Below the pieces are notes generated by a model. The model ran no database searches. It was given only the letters and a program-made list of their open reading frames with translations, and had not been told where the DNA came from. The position numbers were made by a program, and so were the translations under genes. This document shows, piece by piece, positions 3,956 to 28,987 of a DNA stretch of 64,000 nucleotides. This DNA comes from Actinomycetes bacterium (GTDB lineage Bacteria > Actinomycetota > Acidimicrobiia > Acidimicrobiales > JAJZXF01): NCBI GenBank assembly GCA_021791755.1, contig JAJYWA010000003.1, forward strand, positions 6,719-70,718, in the 5' to 3' direction. Each line of letters starts with the position of its first letter. Position 1 is the stretch's first letter.

Positions 3956-6151
3956 TCAGCGGGTCGCGGCGACGATTGCCATGAGCGCCATGAGCGTAAC
4001 GAGCATGTAGGCCATGTACCATGCCAGCTTGCCCGATTGCAGCCGTCTTGCGTGGCGAGCTGCCTGGAGCCACGTAGCGCGAAGCGGTTGGTACAGGTAG
4101 GTGGCAACCGGGTCGGAGACGGTGCGGGCGTACTCGGTGCGAGTTGGAGCGCCAGTGCCAGGCGTCGTGGTTGCGTCATTGCCAAGCCCAGTGTCATTGC
4201 CAAGCCCAGTGTCATTGCCAAGCCCAGTGCCATTGCCAAGCCCGGTGTCAGCGCCAAGCACAGCAGTGGTTGCGCTGGCGGTATCGGCAGGGATCCTGCG
4301 TACCTCTGTCCGGCTCTGCAGCAGGCTCGCCAAGACGTGCCGGAGTGGGTTGACGTAGGCGAAGGAGGTGTAGCTCGCGGTTCTCGCGGGCTCGCTCGAA
4401 GCCGACGTCCACGGCGGCACCCTCCGTACCCGGAGAAAAGATCCTCGTGAGACGAGAACGGTGAAGACGAACGTAGCCGTGAAGAACGAGCAGAGGATGA
4501 TCCACAGCCACGTCGGAGAGAGAATGGAGAAGTTCGCAAAGACCGGCTGGAGCACCATCGGAGAGCGCAGCGCACCGCGCACGAGGCTGGCGCTCACCAC
4601 AGTGCTGAGGCCGCGGGCGATAAAGCGCACGAGCAGTGGAGCCAGGACCGCGGCTGCGATGCATGACGTTGCCAGCGCGCCAACGCCGAGCCTGCCGACG
4701 ATGCCCTCCACCGTGGGGCTCTCCCCCGTGAGGCCCTGGGCTCCTGCGTAGCGATCTAGTCTCTCCTCCCGGGATCGGCCTCCAGGTGGTCCGCCGAGCA
4801 CGCTGAAGCCGATGAGCCTGGCGAAGCAGAGGGCGGCGAGTCCTGCCGTGAGGGCTGCCATCGCACCTGCTCCGGCAAGCGCGAGGCGCATCGCGAGGTC
4901 ATGCACGCGGAACTGCTGCATCAGGGCTTCGAGCACGAACCACTCGGAGACGAACCCGATGCTCGGCGGGAGGCCGGCTAGTGTCAGCGCCGATGCGGCA
5001 AAGGTAGTCGCACTCCAGGGAATACGCTTCACGAGGCCCGAGATTCCGTCGAGCCGTGTGGTGTGACCGACTGCTTCCGCGTTGCCGGCTGCTATGAAGA
5101 TCCCTGCCTTGGCGAGTGCGTGCGACACGGCTTGCAGTGTCGCTGCAAGAAGCCCGAGGGCTGCGAGCGGTTTGTTGCCGGTTGCTGCGCCGGTGAGCGC
5201 CACGCCATACGAGGTGAATATGATCCCGGCGTTCTCGATGCTCGAGTAGGCGATCGTGCGCAGCAAGTCCGACTGTACAGCGGCGAACGCGATGCCGCCG
5301 AGAGCCGTGGCGCCTCCCGTGAGGAGCACTCCGGCTGCCAGCCACAGTGGCGGGTGCCCGAGGACTCCGAGGGTCCTCCATAGGCCGTAGATGCCGACGT
5401 TCATGCCCACGGCCGCGAGCGCTGCTCGCGCTGGTCCGGGCGCAGACGGATAGGACGCCGGCATCCAGACCGAGAATGGAACGATGCCGATCTTCGCAGC
5501 GAAGCCGACGACGATGAGGATCCACGCCACATCGCGTGCTGGACCCGGCGCTACTGCATGCCATGATGCGATCGCAAAGCTGCCGGAACGTGACGAAAGG
5601 AGCAGGAAGCCGAGTAGGAGCGATGCTCCAGATACCTTGGCTGTCGACAGGGCAAGCCAACCTCGCTCGACGTGGTCTTCGGACGTCCTCTTGTGGACGA
5701 TGAGGACGTAGAACGACACGGAGAGCAGCTCCCACGCGAACAGGAAGGAGAAGGCGTCGCCTGCAAGCACCACGGCGGCCGCCGACGCGGCCAGCAGCGC
5801 GTACCCGGCGCCCAGCCCGCGACCGCTGGCGCCGGCGTTGGAACGTGACCAGGAGACGAAGCACATTGAGACGCAGAGAGCCACCGCCGAGGTGATCACC
5901 AGGAACATCGCAGAAAGGCCGTCGAGCACTAGGAAGGTATGCCCGATGCCGAACAGGCGCCCCAGTGAGAGCCTCTTTGCGCCATGCGCGGCCATGACCA
6001 TTGCGCCCGATGCCAGGAGGCAGCAGTTCGCCAGCGCGGTCAGTATGTACGGTGCGGATCGAGTCCAGCGTGAACGTGGGCCGAGGACCAGGTCTATGGC
6101 CATTGCGGCGCCGAGGCAGGAGAATGCCGCGACGAGCAGCTCTGCGGTCAC
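3956..6151 (-). CDS. NuoL/HyfB-like proton-conducting antiporter-type membrane subunit
   Basis: 731 aa and polytopic, with NuoL/HyfB-like blocks (WELLSVSFY, AKIGIVPFSVWMP, HALAKAGIF). GTG start overlaps the upstream stop as GTGA. The C-terminal region carries a (TGLGND)n insertion. Confidence 0.85.
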   Translation of the reverse strand: MTAELLVAAFSCLGAAMAIDLVLGPRSRWTRSAPYILTALANCCLLASGAMVMAAHGAKRLSLGRLFGIGHTFLVLDGLSAMFLVITSAVALCVSMCFVSWSRSNAGASGRGLGAGYALLAASAAAVVLAGDAFSFLFAWELLSVSFYVLIVHKRTSEDHVERGWLALSTAKVSGASLLLGFLLLSSRSGSFAIASWHAVAPGPARDVAWILIVVGFAAKIGIVPFSVWMPASYPSAPGPARAALAAVGMNVGIYGLWRTLGVLGHPPLWLAAGVLLTGGATALGGIAFAAVQSDLLRTIAYSSIENAGIIFTSYGVALTGAATGNKPLAALGLLAATLQAVSHALAKAGIFIAAGNAEAVGHTTRLDGISGLVKRIPWSATTFAASALTLAGLPPSIGFVSEWFVLEALMQQFRVHDLAMRLALAGAGAMAALTAGLAALCFARLIGFSVLGGPPGGRSREERLDRYAGAQGLTGESPTVEGIVGRLGVGALATSCIAAAVLAPLLVRFIARGLSTVVSASLVRGALRSPMVLQPVFANFSILSPTWLWIILCSFFTATFVFTVLVSRGSFLRVRRVPPWTSASSEPARTASYTSFAYVNPLRHVLASLLQSRTEVRRIPADTASATTAVLGADTGLGNGTGLGNDTGLGNDTGLGNDATTTPGTGAPTRTEYARTVSDPVATYLYQPLRATWLQAARHARRLQSGKLAWYMAYMLVTLMALMAIVAATR
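4175..4264. repeat. 18-bp in-frame tandem repeat x5 (the last two units diverged) in the HyfB-like gene
   Basis: GTCATTGCCAAGCCCAGT occurs at 4175, 4193 and 4211, with variants at 4229 and 4247. It encodes (TGLGND)n. Confidence 0.9.
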
Positions 6152-7275
6152 CCTAGAGCACCGCCGTTGTCGTTCCCACCGCCGTTGTCGTCCCCACCGC
6201 TGTTGTCGTTCTCGTCGTGGTGCGCGTGCTGCCGGCCGGCCTGGCGCCGAGGTCCTTCTTGTTCCGCTCTTGCGGGCTCATGAAGCTGGCCGGCCGAACG
6301 CTCGCCGAGGATGCCGACTGCGAGCAGTATCCCGTGGAGGAGGCTGAACGGGCTCGGAGGCGAGCCAGGCACCCAGACATCGACATCGAACAGGTCGGAC
6401 ACGCCTCCTCCAACACCGGAGCCTTCCCCACCAGCGCCAGCGCCAGCACGGCCACCAGCGCCAGCGCCTGACGACCTTCCGGCCGGTGAGCCGAGCATCC
6501 CGGCCAGCGTGCTTCGGGGACTTCCGGCCGAAGGATCGCCGGGGTTGGCGACGGCCGAGATCATGCCTCCGCTGATTGCGTCGACGCCAGCGGCCATGAC
6601 CACTCTTGGATGCGGCATGGCTTCGAGCGTGCGTGCGAGCGGTTCGCGCATCTGATCGACACACGCGCCGGTAATGAGGAGGAGGTCGGCATGCCGCGGG
6701 CTGGCGGTGAAGAAGATGCCCAAACGAGCGACGTCGTAGATGGGGTTCGTGAGGGCCGCTACCTCCCACTCGTCGCTGCCGTCGGAGCCGGAGTCGACGT
6801 GTCGTACGTGCACCGACCGGCGTAGCGCCTTGGTCCGCCTTCGCAGCTCAGAGGTGATCAGATGCAGGTTCTGGTCATCCTCGGCGACGTTCCCGACGAC
6901 GTTCCCGACGACGATCCGGCGGCGTTCGAGCGAGGCGATCTCGATGGTGGGGTCGAACCTGAAGAGATCGGGCCGGGCCGCCACGCACCTGCCGCATAGG
7001 ATGCAACGTCCCCTGTCCACGGCAACGACATCGTTGTCGACGTGAATCGCGCCGGTAGGGCATGCCGCGGCGGCGTCTCTTACGGGAGCCGCGGCGCTGG
7101 GACCTTGCCCGGGAAGCGGTTGGGGTGGCCAGCCAGGCCCTTCGGGCGCGAGGCTCTGAGCCCCGATGCTTCGAGGCGCGACGCTGGCTCGCCAGTTGCC
7201 ACCGTAGCCGTCAGGCTTGCGTGGGTAGCGGCTGGTGACGATGCCCTTGCTCAGTCCCTTCAGGATCCACGACAT
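6148..7275 (-). CDS. fusion of a HycF/NuoI-like ferredoxin domain with a HycG/NuoB-like small subunit; Fe-S ligands are mostly lost
   Basis: 375 aa from the internal ATG (MSWILKGLSKGIVTSRYP, the HycF/NuoI N-terminus). The NuoB-like core is LTNPIYDVARLGIFFTASPRHADLLLITG ... VDVWVPGSPPSP. Its ATG overlaps the stop of the upstream gene (TAATG). Confidence 0.8.
   Translation of the reverse strand: MSWILKGLSKGIVTSRYPRKPDGYGGNWRASVAPRSIGAQSLAPEGPGWPPQPLPGQGPSAAAPVRDAAAACPTGAIHVDNDVVAVDRGRCILCGRCVAARPDLFRFDPTIEIASLERRRIVVGNVVGNVAEDDQNLHLITSELRRRTKALRRSVHVRHVDSGSDGSDEWEVAALTNPIYDVARLGIFFTASPRHADLLLITGACVDQMREPLARTLEAMPHPRVVMAAGVDAISGGMISAVANPGDPSAGSPRSTLAGMLGSPAGRSSGAGAGGRAGAGAGGEGSGVGGGVSDLFDVDVWVPGSPPSPFSLLHGILLAVGILGERSAGQLHEPARAEQEGPRRQAGRQHAHHDENDNSGGDDNGGGNDNGGALG
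6159..6212. repeat. 18-bp in-frame tandem repeat x3 at the 3' end of the HycF-HycG-like gene
   Basis: CACCGCCGTTGTCGT(T/C)CC occurs at 6159, 6177 and 6195. It encodes the NDNGGG-type tail. Confidence 0.9.
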
Positions 7276-8810
7276 TACAGGGCGGCTCCTGCGATCGATA
7301 GGCCGAAGCTGGCTTCGATGAAGGCAAAGTCGGTGAGGATGTCCCCCTGGAAGGCTCGAGGCAGCAGGGCGAGGTTGTGGAAGGACGCGGGCCGTGACAA
7401 AGTGCTCTCCAGCCGGCCGCCTCGCACGCTCACGAGGCTCAGGATCTCCCCATGTGGGCCCTCCGACCAGCCAATGTTCTCGCCATCCCTTACATCGATC
7501 GTCGTGACTCGTGAGCTCTGATCGCGCATGCCGGCAGCGTCGCCAGCCGCGACGAGCTCTGAGATCGCCTTGCATGCCATCTTGAACGAGGCATGAAGCT
7601 CCTCCTGGCGGACCTCCAAGCGCGCGAGAGCATCGCCAGCGCTGCGGGTTGCCGGCGCTTGCGGTTCCAGCTCGGCGTAGGCGGCATAAGGGCGGTCGGT
7701 TCTGGTGTCTTCGACGATGCCTGATGCCCGTGCCAGCGGACCGACTGCACCATGGTCGCGTGCTGTCTTCTCGTCGATGAGCCCGGCGCCGCGCAGGCGA
7801 TCGACGAACGACGGGGTTTGAAGCGCTGCTTCGGTGTCGGACATCACTGCCTTCTCGAGGTCGTGGAGCGCAGCGTGAGCGTCGCCAAGTGTGGATGCGG
7901 CGGGAGCGGCCACGCCGCCGGGCGCCACCACTCCGCGCCCGAAACGACTCCCGCAAAGATCAGCTCTCAATCTCTGGGCGTGCTCCTTGCCGATGCCGAA
8001 GCGGGCGTTCGCCACTGCGAGGCCGGCGGCTTCGGTGAGGCGAACGGCAACGTCGAGGTGGTTGGCAATTCGTTCGAGCTCGGCGTGAAGCACCCTCCAG
8101 AGTGCGGCTCTCCGCGGGATGCTGGCGTCGCAGATCCGCTCGACTGCCTGGCAGAAGGCTATGGCGTGCGCCACCGAAGCCACTCCCTCGATCCTTTCGG
8201 CGAGCAGTGCTCCGGTCTCGATGTCTAGCTGGTCGAAGCGCTCCTCGATCCCGCGGTGCTTCGGGTGGGGCCTGACTTCGAGATGGGGGATCTCCTCGCC
8301 CGGGGTCTCGATCATGTACTCGACCGCCTCGAACACCCCGGAGCGCACCGGACCGTATGGCATGGTGAACATTCCTTCGCCAAGGACATGGCTGGTCGTG
8401 GGGCCGGAGCCTTGTGAGATCAAGGGGCGCAGGTGGGGGTGGCCTACCGGGATGATCCCGTACATATCGTGCATCTTTCGTTCGTACCAGTCGGCAGCAG
8501 GCGCCAAGCGTGTCAGTGAGGGGACGGAGAGCACTTGGCCACCCGCGGCAGACCTGTCGGATGACACCGAGGATGGGACGTAGGACGAGAGGACATGGAT
8601 GCTGCTCGGGCGACCTCGGCCGCACAAGATCGCGTAGATCTTTCCTGCGCGTGAGCCGTCCGGTCCAGGCGAGCGACCCGGGCCGAGGAGGCCGGCGAAG
8701 CGCATTCCCTCGCGTGCTCGAGAGGCAACTCTCTGGGCCAGATCCCAGGCGGGCGCCTCTGAGACGGTGATCGCCGGCTCGGGGACGCCAGTCGTCTGAT
8801 CCGCGTTCAT
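7275..8810 (-). CDS. HycE/NuoC-NuoD-like large subunit without [NiFe] cysteine ligands
   Basis: 511 aa. NuoC-like block WYERKMHDMYGI. NuoD/HycE-like blocks PYGPVRSGVFE, PHPKHRGIE and LCGSRFGRGVVAPGGV. There is no CxxC motif anywhere in the protein. Confidence 0.85.
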   Translation of the reverse strand: MNADQTTGVPEPAITVSEAPAWDLAQRVASRAREGMRFAGLLGPGRSPGPDGSRAGKIYAILCGRGRPSSIHVLSSYVPSSVSSDRSAAGGQVLSVPSLTRLAPAADWYERKMHDMYGIIPVGHPHLRPLISQGSGPTTSHVLGEGMFTMPYGPVRSGVFEAVEYMIETPGEEIPHLEVRPHPKHRGIEERFDQLDIETGALLAERIEGVASVAHAIAFCQAVERICDASIPRRAALWRVLHAELERIANHLDVAVRLTEAAGLAVANARFGIGKEHAQRLRADLCGSRFGRGVVAPGGVAAPAASTLGDAHAALHDLEKAVMSDTEAALQTPSFVDRLRGAGLIDEKTARDHGAVGPLARASGIVEDTRTDRPYAAYAELEPQAPATRSAGDALARLEVRQEELHASFKMACKAISELVAAGDAAGMRDQSSRVTTIDVRDGENIGWSEGPHGEILSLVSVRGGRLESTLSRPASFHNLALLPRAFQGDILTDFAFIEASFGLSIAGAAL

Positions 8811-10303
8811 CGCCGTTTGGCTCCGCTGGCGCTGAGCTCATGCGCCGCTCGATCGATGAGATGCATGAGCTGGGCCGGCACGTGAACACCGAGCACAACC
8901 AAGGCAACGATCCCTGCTGCCATCGGCACGACCATCCAGCCGCTCAGCTCTCCGCGGCCTGGAGAGCCTTCGGGCGCTGGCGCAAGGAGGATGCGGGTGG
9001 TGTGCCAGGACAGCCCGAAGAACGCTATCGTCACCAGCACGACGAGCGCGGCGGCGGCGATCCCGCCTGATGCCGCCATCCCGCCCGAGACGATCAGGAG
9101 CTCGCTGCGGAAGATGCCGAATGGCGGCAATCCTGAGAGGGCCAGCACGGCCAGCAGGAGCATGGCGCCGCTCCAGGGCAGTAGGCGGGCCCCGCCGCGT
9201 ATCACGGTCATGTCCTTTGTGTGGAGCTTCTCTTTCAAGCTGCCCGCGCCGAAGAAGGCGGTGGACTTCGCGGCCGCGTGAGCGAGAACTTGGAGAAGGA
9301 CGCCCGTGATGGCCACCGGGGCTGCGAAGCTCATGCCAATTGCCAGGATCCCCATGTGCTCCACGCTCGAGTAGGCGAGGAGCCGCTTGAGATCACGCTG
9401 CAGCGCAAGGTACAAGGACGCGAGTAGGAGCGACGCAATGCCGAAGGCCAGCAGCACGTCTCTCGGGAACCCAGGGTCCAAGGATCGCGTCGCGACCTGA
9501 TCAAAACGGAGGATCGCATAGAAGCTGACTGCGAGGAGGGAGCCGGAGAGGAGGGCCGAGACGGGGGTGGGCGCTTCGGAGTGGGCATCGGGCAGCCAGG
9601 TGTGAACGGGCGCTAGTCCCATCTTCGTCCCGTACCCGAGAACTGCCAGGACGAACGCCAGCCGTACCATCTCTGGTGGGAGCTTGCGAGCGGCGTCTAC
9701 GAGGGGACCGAAGCCGATGCTGAACCCATGACCTATCCCGACTGCTCCGGCGGCGTAAATGAGCACGGTGGCCAAGAGCGCGAGGCCGAGGCCCATCGAA
9801 GCGATCAGTAGGTACTTCCAGGACGCCTCTGTTGCTCCGTCGGTGTCATCAAGAGCTACGAGCAGCGCGGAGACCACGGTTGTGATCTCGATCGCCACCC
9901 ATACCAGCGCCAGGCCGTTGACGATCGTGGCTATGTCCATTGCCCAGCAGAAAACGTTCAGGCCGAGGAGGAAACGCCGGTTGAACCGGTTGGACGAGCC
10001 TCCGTCGCGATGCGCCAGGTAGCCCACCGAGTACACCGATGTTGCGGCGTAGAGGAAGGTGGTGACGAGGCAGAACACCACCGATATGGAACCCGCCGAC
10101 AGCCATGAGCCCAGTCCCACGGAGCGAGGCCCGCTGGCGAGATGGGCCGTGAGCCAGACTGCCGAGGCGAAGCTGGCTCCCCCGGCAAGGACCGTGGCAG
10201 TTCGCGCTGTTCTCGCCCCGGCCAGCCAGGACAATGCGGTGGCGACAAGCGGCGCGATGGCTATTGTCACAAGGGCCGCTGTTCCCATGGTCACCATAGT
10301 CAA
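8807..10303 (-). CDS. NuoM/NuoN/HyfF-like proton-conducting antiporter-type membrane subunit
   Basis: 498 aa and polytopic. Contains GTKMGLAPVHTWLPDAHSEAPTPVSALLSG and SSVEHMG blocks. Overlaps its neighbours as TTGA and ATGA. Confidence 0.85.
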   Translation of the reverse strand: MTMVTMGTAALVTIAIAPLVATALSWLAGARTARTATVLAGGASFASAVWLTAHLASGPRSVGLGSWLSAGSISVVFCLVTTFLYAATSVYSVGYLAHRDGGSSNRFNRRFLLGLNVFCWAMDIATIVNGLALVWVAIEITTVVSALLVALDDTDGATEASWKYLLIASMGLGLALLATVLIYAAGAVGIGHGFSIGFGPLVDAARKLPPEMVRLAFVLAVLGYGTKMGLAPVHTWLPDAHSEAPTPVSALLSGSLLAVSFYAILRFDQVATRSLDPGFPRDVLLAFGIASLLLASLYLALQRDLKRLLAYSSVEHMGILAIGMSFAAPVAITGVLLQVLAHAAAKSTAFFGAGSLKEKLHTKDMTVIRGGARLLPWSGAMLLLAVLALSGLPPFGIFRSELLIVSGGMAASGGIAAAALVVLVTIAFFGLSWHTTRILLAPAPEGSPGRGELSGWMVVPMAAGIVALVVLGVHVPAQLMHLIDRAAHELSASGAKRR

Positions 10304-10965
10304 CCTCGCAACTTCGTGATCGGCTTGGTTGACAGCGTCCCTCCTCTCTGGTGATGCACTCGCATCAGGAGCCCGAAGGCCACGACGGCGACCAAGAGGT
10401 CGAACAGGAAGGCAATCTCCATGACCACAGGCAGCGCTGTCGCCACCACGAGGCTCGCCACTGAAACGGCGTTCTCCACCGAGAAGAACGCGACCCCCTG
10501 AGTGGCGACGTCCGACCGTAGGATCGCTAGAAGAACGGAGATGAGCAGGCTCGCGATCGCAATGCTCAGCGCCGGGCTCGGCAGGGTTCGCACGGGGAGC
10601 TTCAGCGCGCCGATCGCGAAGAACCCGAACGCAGAAGCGGCGGCAGCGATCAGCAGCATCGACGCGGTTCTCATGCCGGCGCTCGAGGACAGGTCAGTGT
10701 CGAGGCTTGGCGCAAGCCGCCCCATGATCGCCGGGACGAGAACTACCTTCGTGAGGAAGGACACCCCTGCAAGAAGGTATAGGCCGTCGAGGCCGTGGGT
10801 GGCGGCGACCACGACGACGAGCGCCGTCACCGCGATGGATTGGAACCGGTAGAGGCGGACTTGCGAGCGCACGAATGGCGCTCGGAGCATGGCCATTACG
10901 CATAGGAGCACCGTGAGGCTGATCACGTCAGCCGCGCTCTGGAACGCGTTCGGCGCCGCAGTCAT
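10300..10965 (-). CDS. HyfE-like (NuoK-related) small membrane subunit
   Basis: 221 aa from the internal ATG (MTAAPNAF). About 7 TM segments, and the size and hydropathy resemble hydrogenase-4 component E. The longer ORF to 11118 overlaps the upstream gene. Confidence 0.7.
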   Translation of the reverse strand: MTAAPNAFQSAADVISLTVLLCVMAMLRAPFVRSQVRLYRFQSIAVTALVVVVAATHGLDGLYLLAGVSFLTKVVLVPAIMGRLAPSLDTDLSSSAGMRTASMLLIAAAASAFGFFAIGALKLPVRTLPSPALSIAIASLLISVLLAILRSDVATQGVAFFSVENAVSVASLVVATALPVVMEIAFLFDLLVAVVAFGLLMRVHHQRGGTLSTKPITKLRG

Positions 10966-10981
10966 CGGCTTCCCGCCACAG

Positions 10982-11932
10982 TCATCCGCCTCCGAGGTAG
11001 AAGAGCAGCACGGCGAGGAGCGCCAGGACGAACGCCGCGGCAAGGAGCTCGGTGATCTTGAACAGGCGCAGCTTCGAGAACGAGTTGTCGAGGACGCTGA
11101 AGACGGCCCCCACTGCAAGCGTCTTTGCCACTAGCACTGGAACTGCCACAAGAACTGTGCCGAGCTGCAGGCTTCCTCCGAGGCCCCATGGAGCGACGAA
11201 CACGTCGACGAGGATCGTGTAGAGGATCATCTGCTTCATATCCGATCCCCAGGTGAGCAGGGCGAGAGCAGGGCCCGAGTGCTCGAGCGCCTGGGCTTCG
11301 CCGATCATTCCGAGCTCCAGCGTGCCCGAGTGCGTCTCGACCGGGATGCGCGCTGTGTCGGCCAGTACGACGAGGAAGAAGGCGACAGCCGCGAGGATGT
11401 GAGACGGCCTCAGCTCCTGGGATGTCGAGGAGTGTAGCGTTGCGGCCATCGCATAGGGAAGGTCTGTGGCTGTGAGCAAGCCGACTGCGAACACGACGAA
11501 GAGGATCGTCGGCTCGATGAGCGCTGCAAAGGTCATCGAGCGGCTGCTGCCCAGCTGCGCGAAGGGAGCGCGGGTCTCGGCTGCCGCGACCGCGACGGCA
11601 AAGCCGGCTGCGGCGAGGATGAAGCCGCCTCCGAGGATGTCGCCGGTGTAGCCGAGAGGCAGAGGATAGGAGGTCAGGACGGGGATGAGCATGGGCACGG
11701 TGAGGTAAGCGGAGAAGGCGAACATTGGCGCGGCAAGGAAGAACCAGCTGGAGCCTTCTGGAGCGAGTGTCTCTTTGCGAAACAGCTTGAAGAGGTCGTA
11801 ATAGGGCTGGAGGACGCGCGGACCGCGACGACCCTGAAGGACGGCCTCCAATTTTGCTATGACACCGCTGACGAGCGGCGACGCTCCGAGGATCGTCAGC
11901 ACTTGCAGTACTTGCACCTGCCAGGGAACCAT
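10982..11932 (-). CDS. NuoH/HycD-like membrane subunit
   Basis: MVPWQVQVLQVLTILGASPLVSGVIAKLEAVLQGRRGPRVLQPYYDLFKLF aligns from memory with the HycD N-terminus. The start is set at ATG 11932; the ORF is open to 11989. Confidence 0.85.
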   Translation of the reverse strand: MVPWQVQVLQVLTILGASPLVSGVIAKLEAVLQGRRGPRVLQPYYDLFKLFRKETLAPEGSSWFFLAAPMFAFSAYLTVPMLIPVLTSYPLPLGYTGDILGGGFILAAAGFAVAVAAAETRAPFAQLGSSRSMTFAALIEPTILFVVFAVGLLTATDLPYAMAATLHSSTSQELRPSHILAAVAFFLVVLADTARIPVETHSGTLELGMIGEAQALEHSGPALALLTWGSDMKQMILYTILVDVFVAPWGLGGSLQLGTVLVAVPVLVAKTLAVGAVFSVLDNSFSKLRLFKITELLAAAFVLALLAVLLFYLGGG

Positions 11933-12252
11933 TTCTAGGCTTGCGGTCAATTCTCCTCCGGGTCTCCTCCGGGCGGTCGCGTAATCCATTCACGTGTCGC
12001 TCAGAGGCCATCAACCCGAGGAGCTCGGCTGCAGTTCCGCCTGGCAGCGTCGCACCCGATTACCACGCTCCGTTGTGCAATGCCCTCGTACAAGGCCCTC
12101 AGGGTCCTGACGCTCGCAAGGCTCTGACAACTCAGAGGTGTGGCAATGGGTATTCGGGCATCGCACCCGCTGATGCACTACTGCACCTGTCAAGGCGCGC
12201 TGCCCACCGGAGCCTCATCCGGCTTCTCGTTACTATACCAGCTCCGCAGGCC

Positions 12253-12298
12253 GCCGCAGCAAGACGGCAGGGGAGGCCGCAGCAAGACGGCGAGTACA
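12253..12298. repeat. 23-bp tandem repeat x2 in the divergent intergenic region
   Basis: The 16-nt core GCCGCAGCAAGACGGC is perfect at 12253-12268 and 12276-12291. Confidence 0.9.
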
Positions 12299-12493
12299 TG
12301 GCTTGGTCAGCAGGTCGAGCACGCTGGTGGGCGGTTTAGCTCGCCCAGCGTCCGGCTGCTCGTTGGGTACTATAGTGAAGTGAGGTCAGCATTCTCGCCG
12401 GCCTGCGGGGTCGTCATAGCCTATTGGCATGTTGGCTGGCAGATTTGCCGGCCATGATCAGGTAGCCGGACGGCAATTCACTTGGCAGGGAGA

Positions 12494-14134
12494 ATGACGA
12501 CTGCTCTTCGAGTGCTAGGGGGCAGGTATCAGCTGGAGGATCGCCTTGCCCGGGGAGGGATGGGGGAGGTGTGGCGTGGACACGACCTGCTCCATGATCG
12601 CACGGTTGCTCTGAAGCTGGTCGGGCTTGGCAGCCCAGCGGCAGCGGACCGTTTCGTCGCCGAGGCATCGACTCTTGCCAGCCTGACGCATCCAGCCCTT
12701 GTGCGTTTCTTGGATGCAGGCATGGCAGATGGTGAAGCCTATCTGGTCATGGACCTGATCGATGGCCCAAACCTCGCATCCGAGCTTGCCGCAGGCGCTC
12801 CGCTGGATCCCTGTCGCACCGCGAAGATCGGGGCGTCTCTTGCAAGCGCACTCGCTTATGTTCATGAGCACCGTATTGTCCACCGTGATGTCAAGCCGGC
12901 GAACGTGTTGATTGGATCGGATGGCATAGCTCGCCTGGCTGATTTTGGTGTCGCAAGGTTGATGGATGAAGTGGGTCCAACTACGACGGGAATGACCATT
13001 GGGACTGCGGCGTACATGGCGCCTGAGCAGCTCGAGCATCATTCAGTGGGACCTGCAGCCGACGTGTACTCGCTGGGGCTCGTGCTCCTGGAGTGCTTGA
13101 GTGGCCGTAGGGAGTACCAGGGCACGCTCACAGAGGTCGCTGCGCGTCGGCTCTGCCAGGATCCTGTCGTGCCGCAGGAGCTCCCGGTGGGATGGCGCCT
13201 TCTTCTTGGTGCGATGTTGGTGCGCGATCCGCTGAGGCGTCCCACGCCAGCAGAAGTTGCAAGTGTGTTGGCGCCGTTCTCGCAGACGGCCCTAGCTACG
13301 GATCCGTTGCTAGCCGCGTCTACGGTCTTGCTTCCATCTCTGAGCTCATCGTTTACCGCGTCTCCGACCTTGCCCGGTCCTGCCGTGAGCTCGCGGCCGC
13401 CGGTGCAGGTGCCACGTGCTCTTGTGGATCCTGGGGGGACCGCGAGAGGCGCGCGACGCGCTGGTAAGGACCACCATTCCCGCCGTCTGATGTCGTTGAT
13501 GGCGCTGGCCGCGGTTCTTGCGGGCGGGCTGGTGGCCCTTGGCGTATCGCTGGGAACGGTTGGGAACAGCAGAATGCCTCGCAGGGTCACTGGCCGCGTG
13601 TCAACGAAGGCACGGACAGCTCCCAGTGGAAGCACAGTTCAGCCGACTACGGCCTCCACCGCGCCGCCTTCTGCGTCCTCGCCGGTGGCGGCGCTATCGC
13701 CGCATGATGCGGCGCCGGCCGGCCCTGGCGGCAGTGCAGGCAGGTTCCTGATCAACCTCCAGAACGGCCTAGTGGATGGCTCTGTGAGTGCAAGAGAAGC
13801 ATCGTCGCTCATCTCGGCTATTGCCTGCCTGCTCGAAGCGTACGACAGCGGACAGGCATCAAGAGCCGCCAAGTGCCTGAACCAGCTCGATGCCTCGATC
13901 CAGCAAGGTGAGGAACGAGGGTCGCTGTCGGTGGCCCTCGGGAACACGCTGAGCTCCGACCTGCAACCTCTTGTTGCCGATGTCGGGTCCATGGCAAGCC
14001 AACCCGGAGACGTAAGTCTGCAGGGCGCCGGTCCCTCGCACGGCGCCGGGCCACCGAGCCAGAGTGGCCCTGGCACGCCTGTGGGCATCAATCCTCCAGG
14101 AGCACCGCCCGGCAGGGAAAGAAAGGGCGGCTGA
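12494..14134 (+). CDS. Hanks-type Ser/Thr protein kinase with one TM helix and a C-terminal extracytoplasmic domain
   Basis: GGMGEVW...VALK, HRDVKPANVLI, DFG and APE motifs. A TM segment (LMSLMALAAVLAGGLVALGV) is followed by a Pro/Ser-rich region. An alternative TTG start lies at 12482. Confidence 0.9.
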   Translation: MTTALRVLGGRYQLEDRLARGGMGEVWRGHDLLHDRTVALKLVGLGSPAAADRFVAEASTLASLTHPALVRFLDAGMADGEAYLVMDLIDGPNLASELAAGAPLDPCRTAKIGASLASALAYVHEHRIVHRDVKPANVLIGSDGIARLADFGVARLMDEVGPTTTGMTIGTAAYMAPEQLEHHSVGPAADVYSLGLVLLECLSGRREYQGTLTEVAARRLCQDPVVPQELPVGWRLLLGAMLVRDPLRRPTPAEVASVLAPFSQTALATDPLLAASTVLLPSLSSSFTASPTLPGPAVSSRPPVQVPRALVDPGGTARGARRAGKDHHSRRLMSLMALAAVLAGGLVALGVSLGTVGNSRMPRRVTGRVSTKARTAPSGSTVQPTTASTAPPSASSPVAALSPHDAAPAGPGGSAGRFLINLQNGLVDGSVSAREASSLISAIACLLEAYDSGQASRAAKCLNQLDASIQQGEERGSLSVALGNTLSSDLQPLVADVGSMASQPGDVSLQGAGPSHGAGPPSQSGPGTPVGINPPGAPPGRERKGG

Positions 14135-17726: not shown

Positions 17727-18645
17727 GGTGACCTGCCCGTCTCGAGACCTGATCGCAGAGGACGCAGAGGAGTGGTCCAGATCGTGCTGGGTAGCCTGGC
17801 GATGGAGGCCGCGACCGCGCCGGCTATGTTCGGGGCTCACGGCTTGATCCGGCAGGGTAGACACCTCGCGCGTTTGTCGAGGCAGGTCCGGCCGCTGGCC
17901 GAGCGGCATCGGTGGCCAAATCTTGGCGTTCCCGTTCCCGTTCGCCAACTGGACATGCCACAGCTTAACCTGAATGCAGCGCTTCAATCACGGCAGGCAT
18001 CACGGTACGAATCCAATGAGCTCGGCTTCGGAGGAACGACCCGCGTGAACGGTTGTTGTTCGCTCAGCGGTGAGTTTTTGTGCTGGTCGCCAAAGCGGCT
18101 GAAATACGAGAGCCAAGCGGGTGGTCAAGCGAGACACTACAAGGTGGAATCGTGAGCTGGATCTGTTGGGCTGGACCATGGCGTTGATCGCCAGTCTCTT
18201 CCGCTTGCGTTGGTTCTTGTCCGAGTTGTCGGTGGCCATGCGATGGTTGTCGCTTTGGCTCCCCGGCTCTGGGTTGCCATGGGTATCTTTCACTTTCACC
18301 GGGTGGGCAGCTGGCGCTGAGCGGTGCGGCGTGAACGTGCTTTATCGGGTTCAGTTGCTCCCCCGGGAGCGCTCCAGCCAGCATGGACTCTGGGCTCGCG
18401 TGTTGAAGAACGCATGTGGAGACGCTTTGGCGACCCTGGAGAAGTTCTGGGCGGCTGTCGCAGCCGACGTACAGCCTGTCGTCTGCAGGAGGGACGGGTG
18501 GACTTGGAGTGAGGCGATCTGTCACTGTGCCTAGTGGCTGCTCGATTCCCCGATGCGCAATGCCTCGATCGATGTCCGGCGATCGCGCGAGGCTGGCTTC
18601 CATCTGTATTATCACGACGGAGTGGTAGTTCAAAGAGTGATCGCA

Positions 18646-18682
18646 CACGAGGTGCGCTGGCATGTAAGGAGGTTTCCTCGTG
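18646..18682 (+). promoter_or_regulatory. hairpin enclosing a perfect SD and a GTG codon
   Basis: CACGAGG (18646-52) pairs with CCTCGTG (18676-82). Alternatively, GAGG of the SD (18669-72) pairs with CCTC (18676-79). Confidence 0.3.
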
Positions 18683-19033
18683 TACGCTTGGTCCGGAGCG
18701 TGTGCTTCCACGGGGCAAACTCCATGTAGCAGGCGAACATTAAAGCAAGTGTGGCGAAATGTGCGGGCCGCGTGGGAGGTGACGGGGCAAGTCTGCCCCG
18801 CGTCACGGAGCAATCTGATCAACGGGAGAGCGAAACTACAGGGGAAATCCGCGTCGAGGCCGAAGTGGGCATCCGACCATCACTGGGCATCCCCCGGTGA
18901 CCAGTCCGAGCGAGTGGAAGGCATAGCGACAAAGGTGGTTCTTGAAGGAACGCATCGACGAATGTATCTACGCACCCTTGTGGAGAGGTATGAGGGAACA
19001 GGAATGGTGAGAGACATCGGGGACAGCCGTTGA
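18680..19033 (+). CDS. hypothetical 117-aa ORF (doubtful)
   Basis: Perfect AAGGAGG lies 7 nt upstream of the GTG, and the stop overlaps the TTG start of the next gene (TTGA). However, the composition and third-position GC are poor and there is no recognisable domain. Confidence 0.2.
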   Translation: MYAWSGACASTGQTPCSRRTLKQVWRNVRAAWEVTGQVCPASRSNLINGRAKLQGKSASRPKWASDHHWASPGDQSERVEGIATKVVLEGTHRRMYLRTLVERYEGTGMVRDIGDSR

Positions 19034-20124
19034 TATTTGTTGAGGTCTTCAGATTGCTGGTCGTCCTCATCGGGGCGATAGCCGGTCTCCAGATTGGCAA
19101 GGAGATCAGCGCGGCATCTGCGGCCCCTGTGCTCGGCACGACGCTGGGTGCTTTCGTGACCTACGTAGCTGGAGGGGTTATTGGCCGTATGCTTGACCGA
19201 GGCATGGGCGCAGTTACGCGCAGGCTGCGTGACATCCCGCCGGCTGAGGTCTTCGCAGCCTCAGTGACCGGAGCGTTGGGCCTGCTCGTTGGTCTGGTGG
19301 CGGGCCTGCCGTTACTGGGCCTTGTTCGCTCCTCGATCGACTATCCGAGCCTGGCTGCTATTTGCTGGGTGATGGCCGTGCTGGCAGCACGGTTCGGGGC
19401 GAGCAAAGGCGAGCAGTTCGTCGACATGCTCAATCTCTCCAGAAGGCTGTCACGGCACACAGAGATCACGTCCGATGACTCCGCCCTGCTCGACTCATCC
19501 GCCCTTATGGACAAGTACCTACTCATCTTGGGTAATTCCGGGCTGCTGCCGCGTTCTTTGATCGTCCCCCAATTCGTGCTGGACCAGGTGGACACCATTG
19601 CGGCTGGCCCCGATCCTGTCTCGTCCCGGAGGGCGAAGAGAGGCCTCGAGTCACTGGACGCTCTTCGGTCCGCGGGAATCGTGATCCAGATCGCGGACGA
19701 GGAGGTTCCGGAGGTTGACGACCTCAATGAGAAAGTGGCAGCACTGGCGGAACGACTTGGCGCCCGCGCGATCACGTGCTCGGGCGAGGTGGCGTCGATG
19801 GTGGAGGCGCGCGGCGCCAAGGCGCTCGATCTGAGGCGGCTTTCGTCCAATCTATTGCCCGAGCACCTGCCAGGAGAGCACCTGACCGTAGACCTCGTGA
19901 GGCCAGGCCGCCAGGCGAGGCAAGCCATCGGCTATCTTCCCGATGGAGACATGGTCGTTGTCAACGACGCCGAGGAAGCGATCGGTAAAGTCGGCGTCGA
20001 CGTAGTGGTGGCATCCACCAGGCAGACGACCCAGGGTGTGCTGGTCTTTGCCAACCTGCGCTCGTCAGTGCGCAAAGACAGCGGATCTGCCGATCCGCCG
20101 GTGCAGTCGTTCTCGCCCAGCTGA
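19030..20124 (+). CDS. YacL-like membrane-associated PIN + TRAM domain protein
   Basis: N-terminal TM helices. PIN-like block LLDSSALMD...IVPQFVLDQVDTIA...RRAKRGLESL. C-terminal TRAM-like block GEHLTVDLVRPGRQARQAIGYLPDGDMVVV...VVASTRQTTQGVLVFA. Confidence 0.8.
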   Translation: MIFVEVFRLLVVLIGAIAGLQIGKEISAASAAPVLGTTLGAFVTYVAGGVIGRMLDRGMGAVTRRLRDIPPAEVFAASVTGALGLLVGLVAGLPLLGLVRSSIDYPSLAAICWVMAVLAARFGASKGEQFVDMLNLSRRLSRHTEITSDDSALLDSSALMDKYLLILGNSGLLPRSLIVPQFVLDQVDTIAAGPDPVSSRRAKRGLESLDALRSAGIVIQIADEEVPEVDDLNEKVAALAERLGARAITCSGEVASMVEARGAKALDLRRLSSNLLPEHLPGEHLTVDLVRPGRQARQAIGYLPDGDMVVVNDAEEAIGKVGVDVVVASTRQTTQGVLVFANLRSSVRKDSGSADPPVQSFSPS

Positions 20125-20170
20125 GCCAATCTTCGCTGGCATTTCGCGCTGCCCAAAGGGGCAGGTCCCG

Positions 20171-20234
20171 CGATTGTCGCATCGGCCGATTGTCGCATGG
20201 TCCGATTGTTCCTTCGGGCGATTGTCGTACGGTG
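20171..20234. repeat. 16-bp tandem repeat x4, intergenic
   Basis: CGATTGTCGCAT at 20171 and 20187, CGATTGTTCCTT at 20203, and CGATTGTCGTAC at 20219. Confidence 0.9.
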
Positions 20235-20526
20235 ATGGCGACCACACCACATGATCGATTATCGTCGAAGTGCTTTGCCGAGCCCGCGGAGTCGAGGGTC
20301 ACAGGATAGCTTCGGTTGGTCGGCCTGCGCGATCCCTCACGCTTTTCTCATGCTGCTCTCATACTGAGGTGGTCGACTTGTAGCGGCGGTGTACCGAGAT
20401 CCTCGGCGCCGTCTTGCTCGATTCCCGATCCCGTTCCTGGAGGATGCGTATGGCGAACAGCGGCAACGCGCCGTCTTGCTCGATCGCTCGCGTCGATGGC
20501 CGCGATGACGGCCGGCGTGTTGTGTC

Positions 20527-21798
20527 GTGCCTGTTGTCCGGCCAGCCATGTCGCGGTCTTGCCAGGTCTTCTCTGGCCAGTCATGGACCGCACCGGACAC
20601 CGGTACGGTAGTGGCGGCTGCGCTCAGGAGCCTAGTCGCACGCTGGTGCGACATCTTGCGCTCACCGATGCGGGTTGGCTTGCTCGCCTCCGGTGTCGGC
20701 GTCTTGATCGCCACAGCGCGGCTCCTCGTGGCGGCGCATGGCCACGCTGGCGACTTCGTGGTGGCTGGCAGGTACTTTGCCAATCCGAAGCTGGTTCCTC
20801 ATGGCGTGCGGGTGTTCCCGGGAACAGGTTATGACGGGCAGTTCTTCTACCGGATCGCGCTTGATCCGGCTGACTTTGCCCGTAGGGCCTTCGGTGTTCG
20901 GATCGACTCCTCCTACCGCTTCCAGCGCATTGGCTATCCGGTGCTCGGGTGGCTCGGCTCCCTGGGTGGTCACCCGTCAATGGTTCCGTGGTCCCTTATC
21001 GTCGTCAACCTGATAGCGGTCGGCGTGGCGGGATTCGCGGCTGCAGTGCTAGCAAGCCAGGCCGGTAGGCATCCTGCCTGGGGGCTCTTGATGGTTGGTT
21101 TCTTTGGATTTCCCTTTAGCCTGTCGCGCGACACTGCAGAGATCGTCACGGCGGGGTTCACCTTGATAGGGATCGTGGCGTTGCGCGGACGACGGTACGT
21201 GCTTGCCGCCGCCGCTTTGTCGGCAGCGGTGCTCACGCGCGAGACCGTGGTGCTGATTGTCTTTGCGTATGGAATCGTGAGGATTGTGGCCATTGTGCGG
21301 CGAAAGGCATCTCCTGGCGCGCCCGACCTCGCCTGGGTAGTGCCGGGGGTGGCTTTTGTCGGTTGGCAAGCGGTTGTGACTGCTTTCTCGTCCACTCCGG
21401 CAGTGAGCGATCTCTCAGCGAACCTCAGCATCCCGTTCGTGGCGATGGTCCGTGCGGTAAGCCACTGGGTTGCAGCGTTGCCGGCCACGGCCGCCGATCT
21501 TTGGGTGGAGCAGGCGGTCGTGCTGATCTTCGTTGTCATCGTCGCAGCGACAGGGCTGCGCAGGAGCTCGGCCCGCAGTTACGAGCGGTTGGCTTTCGTG
21601 CTACTGGCTGTCCTCAGCGTGTCACTTGCCTACGGGATCTGGGGCGGCCAGGCAGACTTCAGGAGCTTTTCGGAGCTGTACGTCTTCGCAGTGCTGGTTG
21701 CTATCGAGGTACGCCAACGTCGACACCTGTGGGTGATCGCTGCCCCGGTAGCTCTCGCATGGTTGCCGGTGGTGGTCCACCAAGTGGCCTTCATATGA
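20527..21798 (+). CDS. polytopic integral membrane protein of unknown function (possibly a GT-C-like glycosyltransferase)
   Basis: 423 aa with about 10 hydrophobic segments. An alternative ATG start lies at 20668 (MRVGLLASG). Confidence 0.55.
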   Translation: MPVVRPAMSRSCQVFSGQSWTAPDTGTVVAAALRSLVARWCDILRSPMRVGLLASGVGVLIATARLLVAAHGHAGDFVVAGRYFANPKLVPHGVRVFPGTGYDGQFFYRIALDPADFARRAFGVRIDSSYRFQRIGYPVLGWLGSLGGHPSMVPWSLIVVNLIAVGVAGFAAAVLASQAGRHPAWGLLMVGFFGFPFSLSRDTAEIVTAGFTLIGIVALRGRRYVLAAAALSAAVLTRETVVLIVFAYGIVRIVAIVRRKASPGAPDLAWVVPGVAFVGWQAVVTAFSSTPAVSDLSANLSIPFVAMVRAVSHWVAALPATAADLWVEQAVVLIFVVIVAATGLRRSSARSYERLAFVLLAVLSVSLAYGIWGGQADFRSFSELYVFAVLVAIEVRQRRHLWVIAAPVALAWLPVVVHQVAFI

Positions 21799-21962
21799 TG
21801 CAGGGCTCGACAGCTCACTTGTGTGGCTGGCTCCCGTGGCTGGCTCCCGTGGTGCCCATAGGCGATGGCGACTTGCCTCGGGACACCGCATGGATGGCTT
21901 GCTGACGTGTTCTGAGCAAGCGAGACCGTGCTTGGCGAACCAAGCAATTGGGGAGCCCCTGT

Positions 21963-21994
21963 TGGTAGCTGCTGGTCGGGTCCAGCAGCTACCA
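21963..21994. terminator. putative bidirectional intrinsic terminator hairpin between convergent genes
   Basis: A perfect 13-bp stem (TGGTAGCTGCTGG / CCAGCAGCTACCA) with a 6-nt loop. There is no clear U-tract. Confidence 0.45.
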
Positions 21995-22021
21995 GTTGCT
22001 AGTTGCTCCCGAATCTACCGG

Positions 22022-22402
22022 TCAGCTGTCTCCGTGGTCGTCCCCGCGCCCTCGGTGCTTTCTGGGCGGGTAGACGGAGCCAGTCGCGTTGGAGCCGTCC
22101 GTGCATGTCAGGTTCCAGGTTTCCTGGCCCTTGGGCTGCACGAAGGGAAGCGTCCAGAACGCGAGCCCCTGAGCGCTCGTGGTCTTGGTGACACCCGTAG
22201 GGGCACTGCTGCTCGATGTGGGGGCCAGTGTCGCGGTGCACGCCGTGCTCGGGTGCCCATATGCGAGGATCGCGAGCTGTGGAGTGCTTCCCGGAAGGGT
22301 CTGAGTGAGAACGTAGATGCCGGTTCCTGATGTGAACTGGCAGGCGCTCAGCCCGATCCCAGCTACCGCGGTCGCAACTAGTGCGAGGACCTTTGTCTTC
22401 AA
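22022..22402 (-). CDS. small lipoprotein
   Basis: AAGGAGG plus an 8-nt spacer plus a TTG start. Signal peptide with lipobox (AVAGIGLSAC). The longer ORF to 22522 lacks an RBS. Confidence 0.55.
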   Translation of the reverse strand: MKTKVLALVATAVAGIGLSACQFTSGTGIYVLTQTLPGSTPQLAILAYGHPSTACTATLAPTSSSSAPTGVTKTTSAQGLAFWTLPFVQPKGQETWNLTCTDGSNATGSVYPPRKHRGRGDDHGDS

Positions 22403-22615
22403 CTGCTCAGCCTCCTTGGTAATTGCTATCCATGACTGCGGCAAGCCTCTCGTGATATCGAAGTTTCCCGGTCGTCTCGTCTGACGCCGTCTCTTCACGG
22501 GATCACTTGGAGTCGGACGCACCTATTAGTATGTTTCAGCTCCAGTATCGACAATGGCTGGCTGAACCTTGAGGTTGGCTCAGGGTCCGCCGGTTTCCGG
22601 TACCATCGTGCACAG

Positions 22616-25844: not shown

Positions 25845-25847
25845 CGC

Positions 25848-26453: not shown

Positions 26454-26559
26454 AGTCCTACGTCGCCGACGGCCTGCGACCCGCAAGGGGGCTCGTGGCT
26501 TTCGCTATGACCCATGTTCCTCGGACCGCGATAACAGCGAGTCTCCTCGAGACGCTCTG

Positions 26560-28205: not shown

Positions 28206-28454
28206 TCGGCCAGCGCCGAAAAGAGCGCCGGCCAATCCCGGCTGCCTTGCATTTCCAGTCATCGGCGCCCGCCCCAGCCGAGGTAGCAATGGAAATGTCT
28301 GGGCTGGCGATACCCATGCTGGCGGAGATGGCAACGCCATGGAGCTCGCACGGTAGCACAGCGCAGTGTGGCCCGCGCATTGGCAACGGATCCTTGCCGC
28401 CTGATACGGTCCTGTGCTCAGCGACGACGATCCTGATGTCCTAGCTTCGCGGTT

Positions 28455-28967: not shown

Positions 28968-28987
28968 GCGCACTGTCGCTGTGTCGG

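Follow-up and report, generated by a model that had tools for sequence, protein, structure and literature searches.

An Ehr-type operon of Actinomycetota with one retained [4Fe-4S] site and a conserved residue set in place of the proximal cluster

We analysed a 64,000-nucleotide stretch of an Acidimicrobiales genome (contig JAJYWA010000003.1, assembly GCA_021791755.1; hereafter the window), which carries a six-gene operon for a membrane complex of the energy-converting-hydrogenase-related (Ehr) type. Its subunits are related to those of group 4 [NiFe]-hydrogenases and complex I. The large subunit lacks the cysteines of the NiFe site and the small subunit those of the proximal iron-sulfur cluster, and one complete four-cysteine [4Fe-4S] site is kept, invariant among the relatives, next to a conserved, mostly acidic set of residues at the vacated positions. 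The operon is shared by many Actinomycetota and is under purifying selection. Our favoured reading is that it encodes a gradient-driven, Mrp-like cation/proton translocator with Ehr-type architecture, in which the peripheral arm would act as a cap or sensor; we put the probability of this reading at roughly 0.45.

Subunits and ligand positions of the operon

Positions 3956-11989 hold, on the minus strand, six consecutive open reading frames (ORFs), g1 to g6 (Table 1), at the same coordinates as in an earlier note on this DNA. That note had described six tightly coupled genes, and the sequence reads as it said at every junction: a 16-nt gap at g1/g2, then TTGA at g2/g3, ATGA at g3/g4, TAATG at g4/g5 and GTGA at g5/g6. 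The families were assigned by Pfam and NCBIfam searches and by phmmer against the PDB, which agree with the subunit types proposed there. The first gene product, g1, matches PF00146 (E=9e-31) and has HycD as its top PDB match (7z0s_D, 8.6e-34). For g2, the hydrogenase 4 membrane subunit model NF008556 scored 3.7e-22, which is under its curated cut-off; the Pfam search gave no match and the PDB sequence search no relative. The two antiporter-like subunits both match PF00361, g3 with 5.6e-50 and with 5e-99 to HyfF models, and g6 with 3e-113 to the HyfB model and HycC as top PDB match (7z0s_C, 6e-31). In g4, PF00329 (Complex1_30kDa) is joined to PF00346 (Complex1_49kDa), and HycE is the top PDB match (7z0s_E, 1.9e-32). 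Finally, g5 combines Fer4_15/Fer4_13 with PF01058 (Oxidored_q6); its best PDB matches are HycG (7z0s_G, 1.3e-22) and MbhJ (4.7e-21), and its ferredoxin half gives a weak match to HycF (7z0s_F, residues 55-103, E=0.011). None of the six proteins is claimed by a curated NCBIfam family, every score lying far under its cut-off (HyfB 379.5 vs 667, HyfF 332.6 vs 610, HyfE 79.3 vs 136, NuoD 149.8 vs 360, NuoB 74.1 vs 116). AlphaFold models of g4 and g5 agree with the assigned folds: the AlphaFold2 model of g4 (pTM 0.82) has a Foldseek TM-score of 0.79 to HycE (7z0s_E), and the NuoB core of the g5 model matches MbhJ (TMt 0.74). As the earlier note had also claimed, no called or long ORF of the window was identified as a gene for formate dehydrogenase, a Hyp/HycI maturation protein or NuoEFG, and nuoA, nuoJ and nuoK are likewise absent from it.

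We then located the ligand positions of the large subunit g4 by pairwise HMMER alignments to HycE and MbhL and, for complex I, to Aquifex NuoCD2 (7q5y_B). Conservation was counted over 120 relatives for g4 and 121 for g5, about 45-55% identical. In the first NiFe motif, RxCGxCxxxH, the first cysteine is replaced by E208 (120/120 relatives) and the second by A211 (118/120), while H215 is kept in 118/120. The cysteine positions of the second motif, DPCxxCxx[HR], hold G503 and I506. The alignment to MbhL stops just ahead of the MbhL DPCxxC; the corresponding C-terminal segment of g4 is itself highly conserved, with E499, A500, F502, S505, A507 and G508 in all 120 relatives, S501 and G503 in 119, and a variable position 506. 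The four cysteine ligands of a group 4 [NiFe]-hydrogenase thus read Glu, Ala, Gly and Ile. The alignment with the 'DRmdY' of Aquifex NuoCD2 pairs E208 with the Asp and G209 with the quinone-site Tyr. Moreover, the GPxH loop of complex I reads GPVR in g4, with R156 at the His position in at least 95% of 81 relatives. Since the Cys, Tyr and His positions are all substituted, g4 is predicted to have neither a NiFe site nor the quinone site of complex I.

The fusion protein g5 consists of a HycF-like ferredoxin domain (residues ~1-130) and a HycG/NuoB-like domain (residues ~140-330). In the ferredoxin domain, cysteines I to III of motif 1 are gone, and 116 of the 121 aligned sequences have no cysteine at all upstream of C72; at the fourth-cysteine position of motif 2 stands R101. 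C72, C91, C94 and C97 are present in 121/121 and in 52/52 relatives. In ferredoxins with two [4Fe-4S] clusters, one cluster is held by the last cysteine of motif 1 together with cysteines I to III of motif 2, and by this standard wiring of C72 with C91, C94 and C97 g5 keeps one complete [4Fe-4S] site. We take it to be the counterpart of N6b in NuoI/Nqo9 of complex I, which adjoins N2, on the basis of textbook ferredoxin wiring and the Nqo9 ligands of Thermus thermophilus. The statement in the earlier note that the ligands of the soluble arm were almost all replaced therefore holds for the NiFe and NuoB cysteines and had overlooked this site.

In the NuoB-like domain, alignment to HycG and MbhJ places D165, D168, D232 and S305 at the four cysteine positions of the proximal [4Fe-4S] cluster (N2 in complex I), as the earlier note had recognised in calling these ligands lost; no cysteine aligns to a NiFe or a proximal-cluster site. 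The replacements are clade-wide. D165 is found in 121/121 relatives and S305 in 120/121; position 168 is Glu in 95/121 and Asp in 23/121, and position 232 is Asp in 118/121 and Glu in two. The word 'degenerate', which had been used for this redox arm, does not fit replacement residues that are themselves conserved, in 118 to 121 of 121 sequences and, for E208, in all 120. The conserved set of D165, E/D168, D232, S305 and E208 points to a retained function of the pocket rather than to simple degeneration.

With 375 residues, g5 is longer than its relatives (median ~270 aa). The excess lies in a Gly/Ala/Ser-rich insert in the NuoB domain (residues 241-288, positions 6412-6555) and an Asn/Gly/Asp-rich C-terminal tail (residues 331-375, positions 6151-6285), both predicted with pLDDT <50 over most of their length. 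The g5 sequence of the nearest relative, locus L086, departs from that of the window at the start of the insert, where the L086 contig ends.

Distribution, selection and place among Ehr complexes

We scanned GTDB species representatives, which yielded 475 matching stretches; the locus counts below are from the best 80 of them. All 80 belong to Actinomycetota, with carriers among Acidimicrobiales, Streptosporangiaceae/Trebonia, Pseudonocardiaceae (Amycolatopsis, Sciscionella), Nocardia and other Mycobacteriales, Actinoallomurus and Actinacidiphila. All six genes lie on one strand in the order H-E-F-CD-[Fer+B]-L, and with the residue signature of the window, in at least 65 of the 80 species loci; the survey of related genomes proposed in the earlier note did recover the same operon. 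All 77 g5 ORFs that are uncut by a contig end are intact and carry the fusion. In a protein collection clustered at 90% identity, the relatives of the large subunit fill at least 2649 clusters and those of the fusion protein at least 2833, under public names such as 'formate hydrogenlyase subunit 5', 'Ni,Fe-hydrogenase III small subunit/ferredoxin' and 'NADH-quinone oxidoreductase subunit C/D'.

We compared the operon with that of L086 (75-92% amino-acid identity; synonymous divergence, dS, 0.46-0.68). The ratio of nonsynonymous to synonymous rates (dN/dS) was 0.093 for g1, 0.075 for g2, 0.144 for g3, 0.251 for g4 and 0.213 for the partial g5. With these values and intact ORFs, the operon is under purifying selection and is not decaying. 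Decay, which the earlier note had named as an outcome that would overturn its view, is thus contradicted by the dN/dS range of 0.075-0.25 and by the 77 intact g5 ORFs.

The Ehr assignment made in the earlier note stands. Genes for large, small, NuoH-like, HyfE-like and NuoL/M/N-like subunits lie in one cluster on one strand, nearly abutting or overlapping; the large subunit has neither RxCGxCxxxH nor DPCxxCxx[HR]; and, in pairwise HMMER alignments only, the quinone-site Tyr and His of complex I are replaced by G209 and R156. Ehr complexes are defined by the missing NiFe motifs, and their function is unknown (PMC3569383, PMC4378227, PMC6349859, PMC10284858). They have been described in Sulfobacillus, as six syntenic genes (PMC4378227), in Geobacter sulfurreducens (GSU0739-45; PMC7894505), in Desulfotomaculum (PMC3569383), in comammox Nitrospira, where they are close to group 4f (PMC10284858), and in Margulisbacteria (PMC6349859). 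The window operon resembles these six- to seven-gene clusters in its subunit types and in its large subunit without NiFe motifs, but the small subunit of its clade has lost the four proximal-cluster cysteines and carries a fused ferredoxin domain with one cluster. Loss of the small-subunit cluster is unmentioned in PMC4378227, PMC7894505, PMC3569383, PMC10284858 and PMC6349859, a set that does not cover the founding papers of Coppi (2005) and Marreiros (2013), and a literature search on actinobacterial Ehr or hydrogenlyase complexes returned nothing relevant. The Ehr kind is already known; what we add is a conserved, widespread actinobacterial variant marked by E208, the D-[E/D]-D-S set and a ferredoxin fusion with one cluster.

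To place this variant, we searched 1.84 billion cluster representatives with a hidden Markov model of the fusion protein, obtained 335 proteins at E<=1e-30 and tabulated the ligand positions in the best 150. Among these 150, the four NuoB cysteines are either intact, with one or two ferredoxin clusters, or replaced by D/E/D/S or D/D/D/S, and intermediate states (DVDS, DIDD, DTDN, DSSD) are scattered between. Five sister operons (Table 1) have the gene order of the window wherever the contig permits and the same fused small subunit; L090, L092 and L094 retain the four NuoB cysteines. Their large subunits all lack the NiFe cysteines, carry the GPVR motif and end in E-[AH]-S-[FW]-x-L. Since none of the five has NiFe cysteines, the broader group with the fused small subunit would be Ehr throughout. 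Together with the window, the sister operons appear to form a reductive series of three, two and one cluster, with the window at its far end. Only D/E/D/S-clade sequences showed a Glu at the first NiFe-cysteine position, which is occupied by A, S, S, D and S in the five sister operons. The impression in the earlier note that this example is unusually stripped down is right in that it has fewer clusters than L090, L092 and L094, but the state is clade-wide in Actinomycetota and not a peculiarity of the window.

Comparison with characterized complexes sets the operon apart from each of them. Formate hydrogenlyase-1 of Escherichia coli (FHL-1; Hyc, PDB 7Z0S) is the closest solved relative of five of the six subunits, and the HyfE-, HyfF- and HyfB-type subunits match the NCBIfam models of E. 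coli hydrogenase-4 (Hyf), with an overall composition equivalent to HyfC-E-F-G-[H+I]-B. Unlike Hyf and FHL-1, the window complex has no NiFe site, no proximal cluster and one HycF cluster instead of two; HycF and HycG are fused, and the HycB/HyfA and FdhF partners and hyp/hycI are missing from the window. The membrane-bound hydrogenase (MBH, 6CFW) and sulfane reductase (MBS/Mbx, 6U8Y) of Pyrococcus furiosus are homologous to g1, g3, g4, g5 and g6 and are also without NuoEFG. The large subunit of MBS has lost its NiFe ligands, yet the complex works, as a sulfane reductase. Both MBH and MBS, however, keep all three [4Fe-4S] clusters and Mrp-type small subunits, as against one cluster and a single HyfE-like subunit here. 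With complex I (NDH-1) the operon shares the folds of NuoB, C, D, H, I and L/M/N and an acidic residue at the 49-kDa R-x-[D/E] position. It differs in lacking the N2 ligands and the quinone-site Tyr and His and in its subunit set, with six genes versus 11-14, no separate NuoA/J/K genes and no NuoEFG, and is not a member of that family.

A possible counterpart in a well-studied organism is the 'hyc' locus Rv0082-Rv0087 of Mycobacterium tuberculosis, which encodes NuoB-like, NuoL-like, HycD, HycP, HycQ and HycE proteins and is co-regulated with the hypoxia/DosR network via Rv0081 (PMC6901956). Its six genes match those of the window in subunit type and closely in length, and their order is circularly permuted. 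Rv0082, at ~159 aa, would be too short to include the ferredoxin domain. No M. tuberculosis protein was found among the 120 best matches (at least 59% identity) to the Nocardia homologue of the large subunit.

Table 1 Coordinates of the operon genes, their motifs, the candidate promoter and the sister operons (window positions unless a locus is named)
Feature	Position	Strand	Remark
g1, HycD/NuoH-like membrane subunit	10982..11989	-	335 aa as longest ORF; probably 322 aa
g2, HyfE-like small membrane subunit	10300..10965	-	221 aa
g3, HyfF/NuoM-like antiporter-like subunit	8807..10303	-	498 aa from TTG; 496 aa from ATG 10297
g4, HycE/NuoC+D-like large subunit without NiFe ligands	7275..8810	-	511 aa
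g5, HycF-like single-cluster ferredoxin fused to HycG/NuoB-like domain	6148..7275	-	375 aa
g6, HyfB/NuoL-like antiporter-like subunit	3956..6151	-	731 aa
Former NiFe L1 motif of g4, R206-I-E208-G-V-A211-S-V-A-H215	8166..8195	-	vs HycE RvCGiCgfaH, MbhL RmCGiCsfsH
Former NiFe L2 motif of g4, E499-A-S-F-G503-L-S-I506-A-G	7287..7316	-	g4 C-terminus, no Cys
Retained four-Cys [4Fe-4S] site of g5, C72-P73 + C91-x2-C94-x2-C97	6970..7062	-	last motif-1 Cys + motif 2
NuoB segment of g5, D161-S-G-S-D165-G-S-D168-E-W-E171, in place of CxxC	6763..6795	-	vs MbhJ SGSCNGCDIE, HycG CGGCNGCEIE
G230-V-D232-A-I-S-G-G of g5, in place of GxCxxxGG (third cluster Cys)	6565..6588	-	vs HycG/MbhJ
P303-G-S305-P-P of g5, in place of PGCPP (fourth cluster Cys)	6355..6369	-	vs HycG/MbhJ/NuoB
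Candidate operon promoter, TGgTATAGT	12232-12240	-	conservation with L086/L087
Sister Ehr operon	L092:1009-3320		three Fe-S clusters
Sister Ehr operon	L090:785-3102		two Fe-S clusters
Sister Ehr operon	L094:2202-4549		two Fe-S clusters
Sister Ehr operon	L093:212-2488		DVDS, one Fe-S cluster
Sister Ehr operon	L095:4321-6653		DIDD, one Fe-S cluster

Possible modes of action

Electron transfer in the homologous enzymes starts at the outer HycF/NuoI cluster and runs through the inner cluster and then the proximal or N2 cluster to the active site. The first, third and fourth of these stations would be gone in the window complex, leaving a lone cluster with neither an entry nor an exit cluster. Since the outer cluster, the proximal cluster and the catalytic metal site are missing, a through-going redox reaction is very unlikely. 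If the complex had no chemical energy source, its thermodynamically simple role would be secondary cation/proton exchange as in Mrp, which works without a redox cofactor. The two antiporter-like subunits and the NuoH/HyfE channel would carry out this exchange, and the NuoH-like channel would be capped structurally by the peripheral arm, in which the lone cluster, the carboxylate pocket or both might sense redox state or cations and so gate transport. We infer the absence of redox turnover, the antiporter function and the gating alike.

The membrane arm fits this picture in most of its charged residues. The antiporter-fold Glu of transmembrane helix (TM) 5, Lys of TM7, Lys of TM11 and Glu of TM12 are kept in both antiporter-like subunits, as E139 (76/77 relatives), K227 (77/77), K346 (76/77) and E401 (77/77) in g3 and as E141 (70/71), K220, K348 and E403 (each 71/71) in g6. 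In g1, E159, D176, E218, H220, E225, E231 and E236 are conserved in at least 95% of 64 relatives. Mrp shares the PF00361 subunits with the TM5 Glu, TM7 Lys and TM12 Glu/Lys, and MrpA and MrpD are among the PDB matches. Mrp differs in having no peripheral arm or NuoH-like subunit and in carrying MrpB/C/E/F/G, and the mrpA-G gene set is not found here; the likeness would be one of function and not of family membership.

Several observations weigh against a gradient-driven translocator. The TM8 Lys (K265 in NuoM) is A258 in g3 and N251 in g6, so that the membrane arm, called intact in the earlier note, is so at the four positions above and not at this one. The Mrp-specific small subunits MrpB/E/F/G are missing from the complex. 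The invariant pocket (R156, E161, E208, H215 and the D/E/D/S set) seems to exceed what a passive cap needs, and chemistry could take place there. Likewise, electrons could still enter at the strictly conserved [4Fe-4S] site. The cofactor content is deduced from ligand positions, and the pocket could hold a metal with non-Cys ligation. Separately, we considered whether the TM8 Lys and the N2-type cluster are lost together; sister operons with intact NuoB cysteines rule this out, having K or N at this position in the g6-type and N in the g3-type subunit.

The strongest competitor, which we regard as unlikely, is a redox-driven ion pump. The lone [4Fe-4S] cluster would take electrons from a soluble carrier (ferredoxin or another donor) and pass them to a substrate or to a non-Cys-ligated metal in the pocket of D165, E/D168, D232, S305 and E208, and the antiporter-like subunits would be driven as in MBH and FHL. 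Such a pump would account for the invariance of the four-cysteine site and of the pocket residues, among them E208 with its restriction to the D/E/D/S clade, and for purifying selection on the large and small subunits; both neighbour clusters of the homologous wire are missing, though, and there are no catalytic metal ligands of any known type. To our knowledge, there is no cubane cluster with all-oxygen ligation. Subunits of the Geobacter Ehr complex do rise with formate as electron donor (PMC7894505), which speaks for a redox role. To look for a conserved partner, we clustered all ORFs within 6 kb of the operon in 65 loci. No flanking family occurred in more than 26 of the 65 loci and none resembled an electron-input module, leaving no conserved donor or partner gene beside the operon.

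We think it improbable, and somewhat more so than the pump, that the D-E/D-D-S set and the clade-specific E208 make up a new cation- or metal-binding or catalytic site. If they did, the complex would be a complex-I-like machine in which the antiporters take their drive or gating from a source other than an Fe-S wire, and a natural 'redox-free' coupling site that exposes the crosstalk of the NuoB/NuoD/NuoH junction with the membrane arm.

A non-redox vectorial enzyme is more doubtful again. Here the former hydrogenase pocket would perform acid-base or metal-dependent chemistry, and the PF00361 subunits would couple it to the ion gradient; the interconversion of CO2 and bicarbonate is one example, a different hydration or a decarboxylation another. 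Antiporter-like subunits do power non-redox chemistry in DabAB (the DAB system) and in cyanobacterial NDH-1/CupA, and a carboxylate-rich pocket is conserved in the cluster's place along with R156, E161, E208 and H215. Against this, we saw no recognisable carbonic-anhydrase-like or other catalytic motif, the flank survey showed no carbon-fixation or bicarbonate-related neighbours, and the proposal is purely speculative.

The six proteins might also be a module that docks on a partner encoded elsewhere, be it a formate dehydrogenase, a NuoEFG-like or a HycB-like unit, to give a joint formate-hydrogenlyase-like or complex-I-like enzyme. A partnership of formate dehydrogenase with Ehr has been proposed for other Ehr complexes, in Margulisbacteria (PMC6349859), and our view of this genome is confined to the 64-kb window. 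We nevertheless hold docking to be highly improbable: the outer ferredoxin cluster that would receive the electrons and the N2-type cluster that would deliver them are both missing, and no such partner is syntenic in 65 species.

Finally, the public names 'formate hydrogenlyase subunit 5' and 'Ni,Fe-hydrogenase III large subunit' would suggest a true [NiFe]-hydrogenase or FHL, or else its decaying remnant; as far as sequence evidence goes this is essentially excluded, decay by the dN/dS values, the intact ORFs, synteny in at least 65 species and the invariant replacement residues, and a hydrogenase by the absence of four NiFe and four proximal-cluster cysteines, a window without hyp/hycI and NCBIfam scores under their cut-offs.

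The translocator reading, to which we return, finds some colour in the surroundings of related operons. A universal stress protein (Usp) gene lies directly downstream of the sixth gene in 19/65 loci (e.g. L055:14445-14903) and also downstream of the DIDD-type operon (L095:8705-9172), and CrcB fluoride-channel and DUF190 genes are nearby in ~13/65 loci; Usp, CrcB and DUF190 genes are all absent from the window. A Ser/Thr protein kinase gene (12482-14134, plus strand) is divergent from the window operon. The same arrangement is present in L086, with an 81% identical protein, and was not seen in 65 more distant loci. The Usp genes, the lack of a syntenic electron-input partner and the divergent kinase are weakly suggestive of a stress-linked, self-contained device.

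Start codons, surroundings and implications

The translation starts of two genes need comment. An 11-bp tandem duplication (CCCGGAGGAGA x2, at 11952-11973) doubles a Shine-Dalgarno-like sequence and puts ATG 11989 in frame with g1; in L086 and L087, which are without the duplication, the same ATG is out of frame. Since ATG 11989 is in frame solely through the duplication and not in the nearest relatives, the probable start of g1 is TTG 11950 (322 aa), which follows GGAGGAGA. The start of g3 may be ATG 10297 (496 aa), as called on identical contigs, in which case the g2/g3 junction would be a 2-nt spacer without overlap. In-frame tandem repeats occur in g6 (4175-4263, 18 bp x4.9, TGLGND units, a lineage-specific insert) and in g5 (6159-6211, 18 bp x2.9, in the tail; 6885-6917, 12 bp x2.8, VGNV). 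On contigs L001-L003, otherwise 99-100% identical, the operon is 18 bp shorter and g6 is called at 725 aa instead of 731. This difference is consistent with a copy-number polymorphism of the g6 repeat.

The 530-bp intergenic region (11951-12481) between the operon and the divergent kinase shows 72-79% nucleotide conservation with L086/L087, including two TATAGT boxes in opposite orientation and a hairpin at 12207-12222. From the candidate promoter (Table 1), we infer a conserved leader of ~275 nt upstream of the operon. A sigma-70 promoter scan found 0 sites, a terminator scan found 5 against 3.2 expected, and the leader had no Rfam match at the gathering threshold or at E<=1. A 105-aa ORF (12140-12457, plus strand), called as a gene on identical public contigs, was considered and set aside. 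It has no Pfam match and an implausible composition and lies inside the conserved leader, and is therefore probably no gene.

The rest of the window contains housekeeping genes (mdh, icd, pyr, car, aro, efp, nusB, metK, coaBC). Between them, ~18000-36400 may be a mobile or defence island; this region has many ORFs without a Pfam match, an Eco57I-like restriction/modification protein and PIN_3 and PIN_2 proteins. A PAS-GGDEF-EAL protein of cyclic-di-GMP turnover (41076-43211, plus strand) adjoins a type IV prepilin peptidase gene and the aroC-aroB-efp-nusB-pyr cluster.

For the annotation of these bacteria, thousands of Actinomycetota database records that bear the name 'formate hydrogenlyase subunit 5' or that of 'Ni,Fe-hydrogenase III small subunit' should not be taken to indicate hydrogen metabolism. 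More broadly, Ehr complexes are a long-standing blank of bioenergetics, being widespread relatives of complex I and energy-converting hydrogenases without a known substrate. In the actinobacterial branch, a single isolated cluster appears to be all that is left of the wire, and purifying selection acts on the membrane machinery and the junction pocket. Its cultured carriers (Nocardia, Amycolatopsis, Sciscionella, Actinoallomurus, Actinacidiphila) make the Ehr question sharper and testable in tractable organisms. The complex may be a complex-I-type membrane arm without redox input, Mrp-like and with a vestigial or sensory arm, or it may hold a pocket with new chemistry; either answer would inform how the peripheral arm is coupled to the antiporters in complex I, and the evolutionary series that links Mrp, the hydrogenases and complex I.

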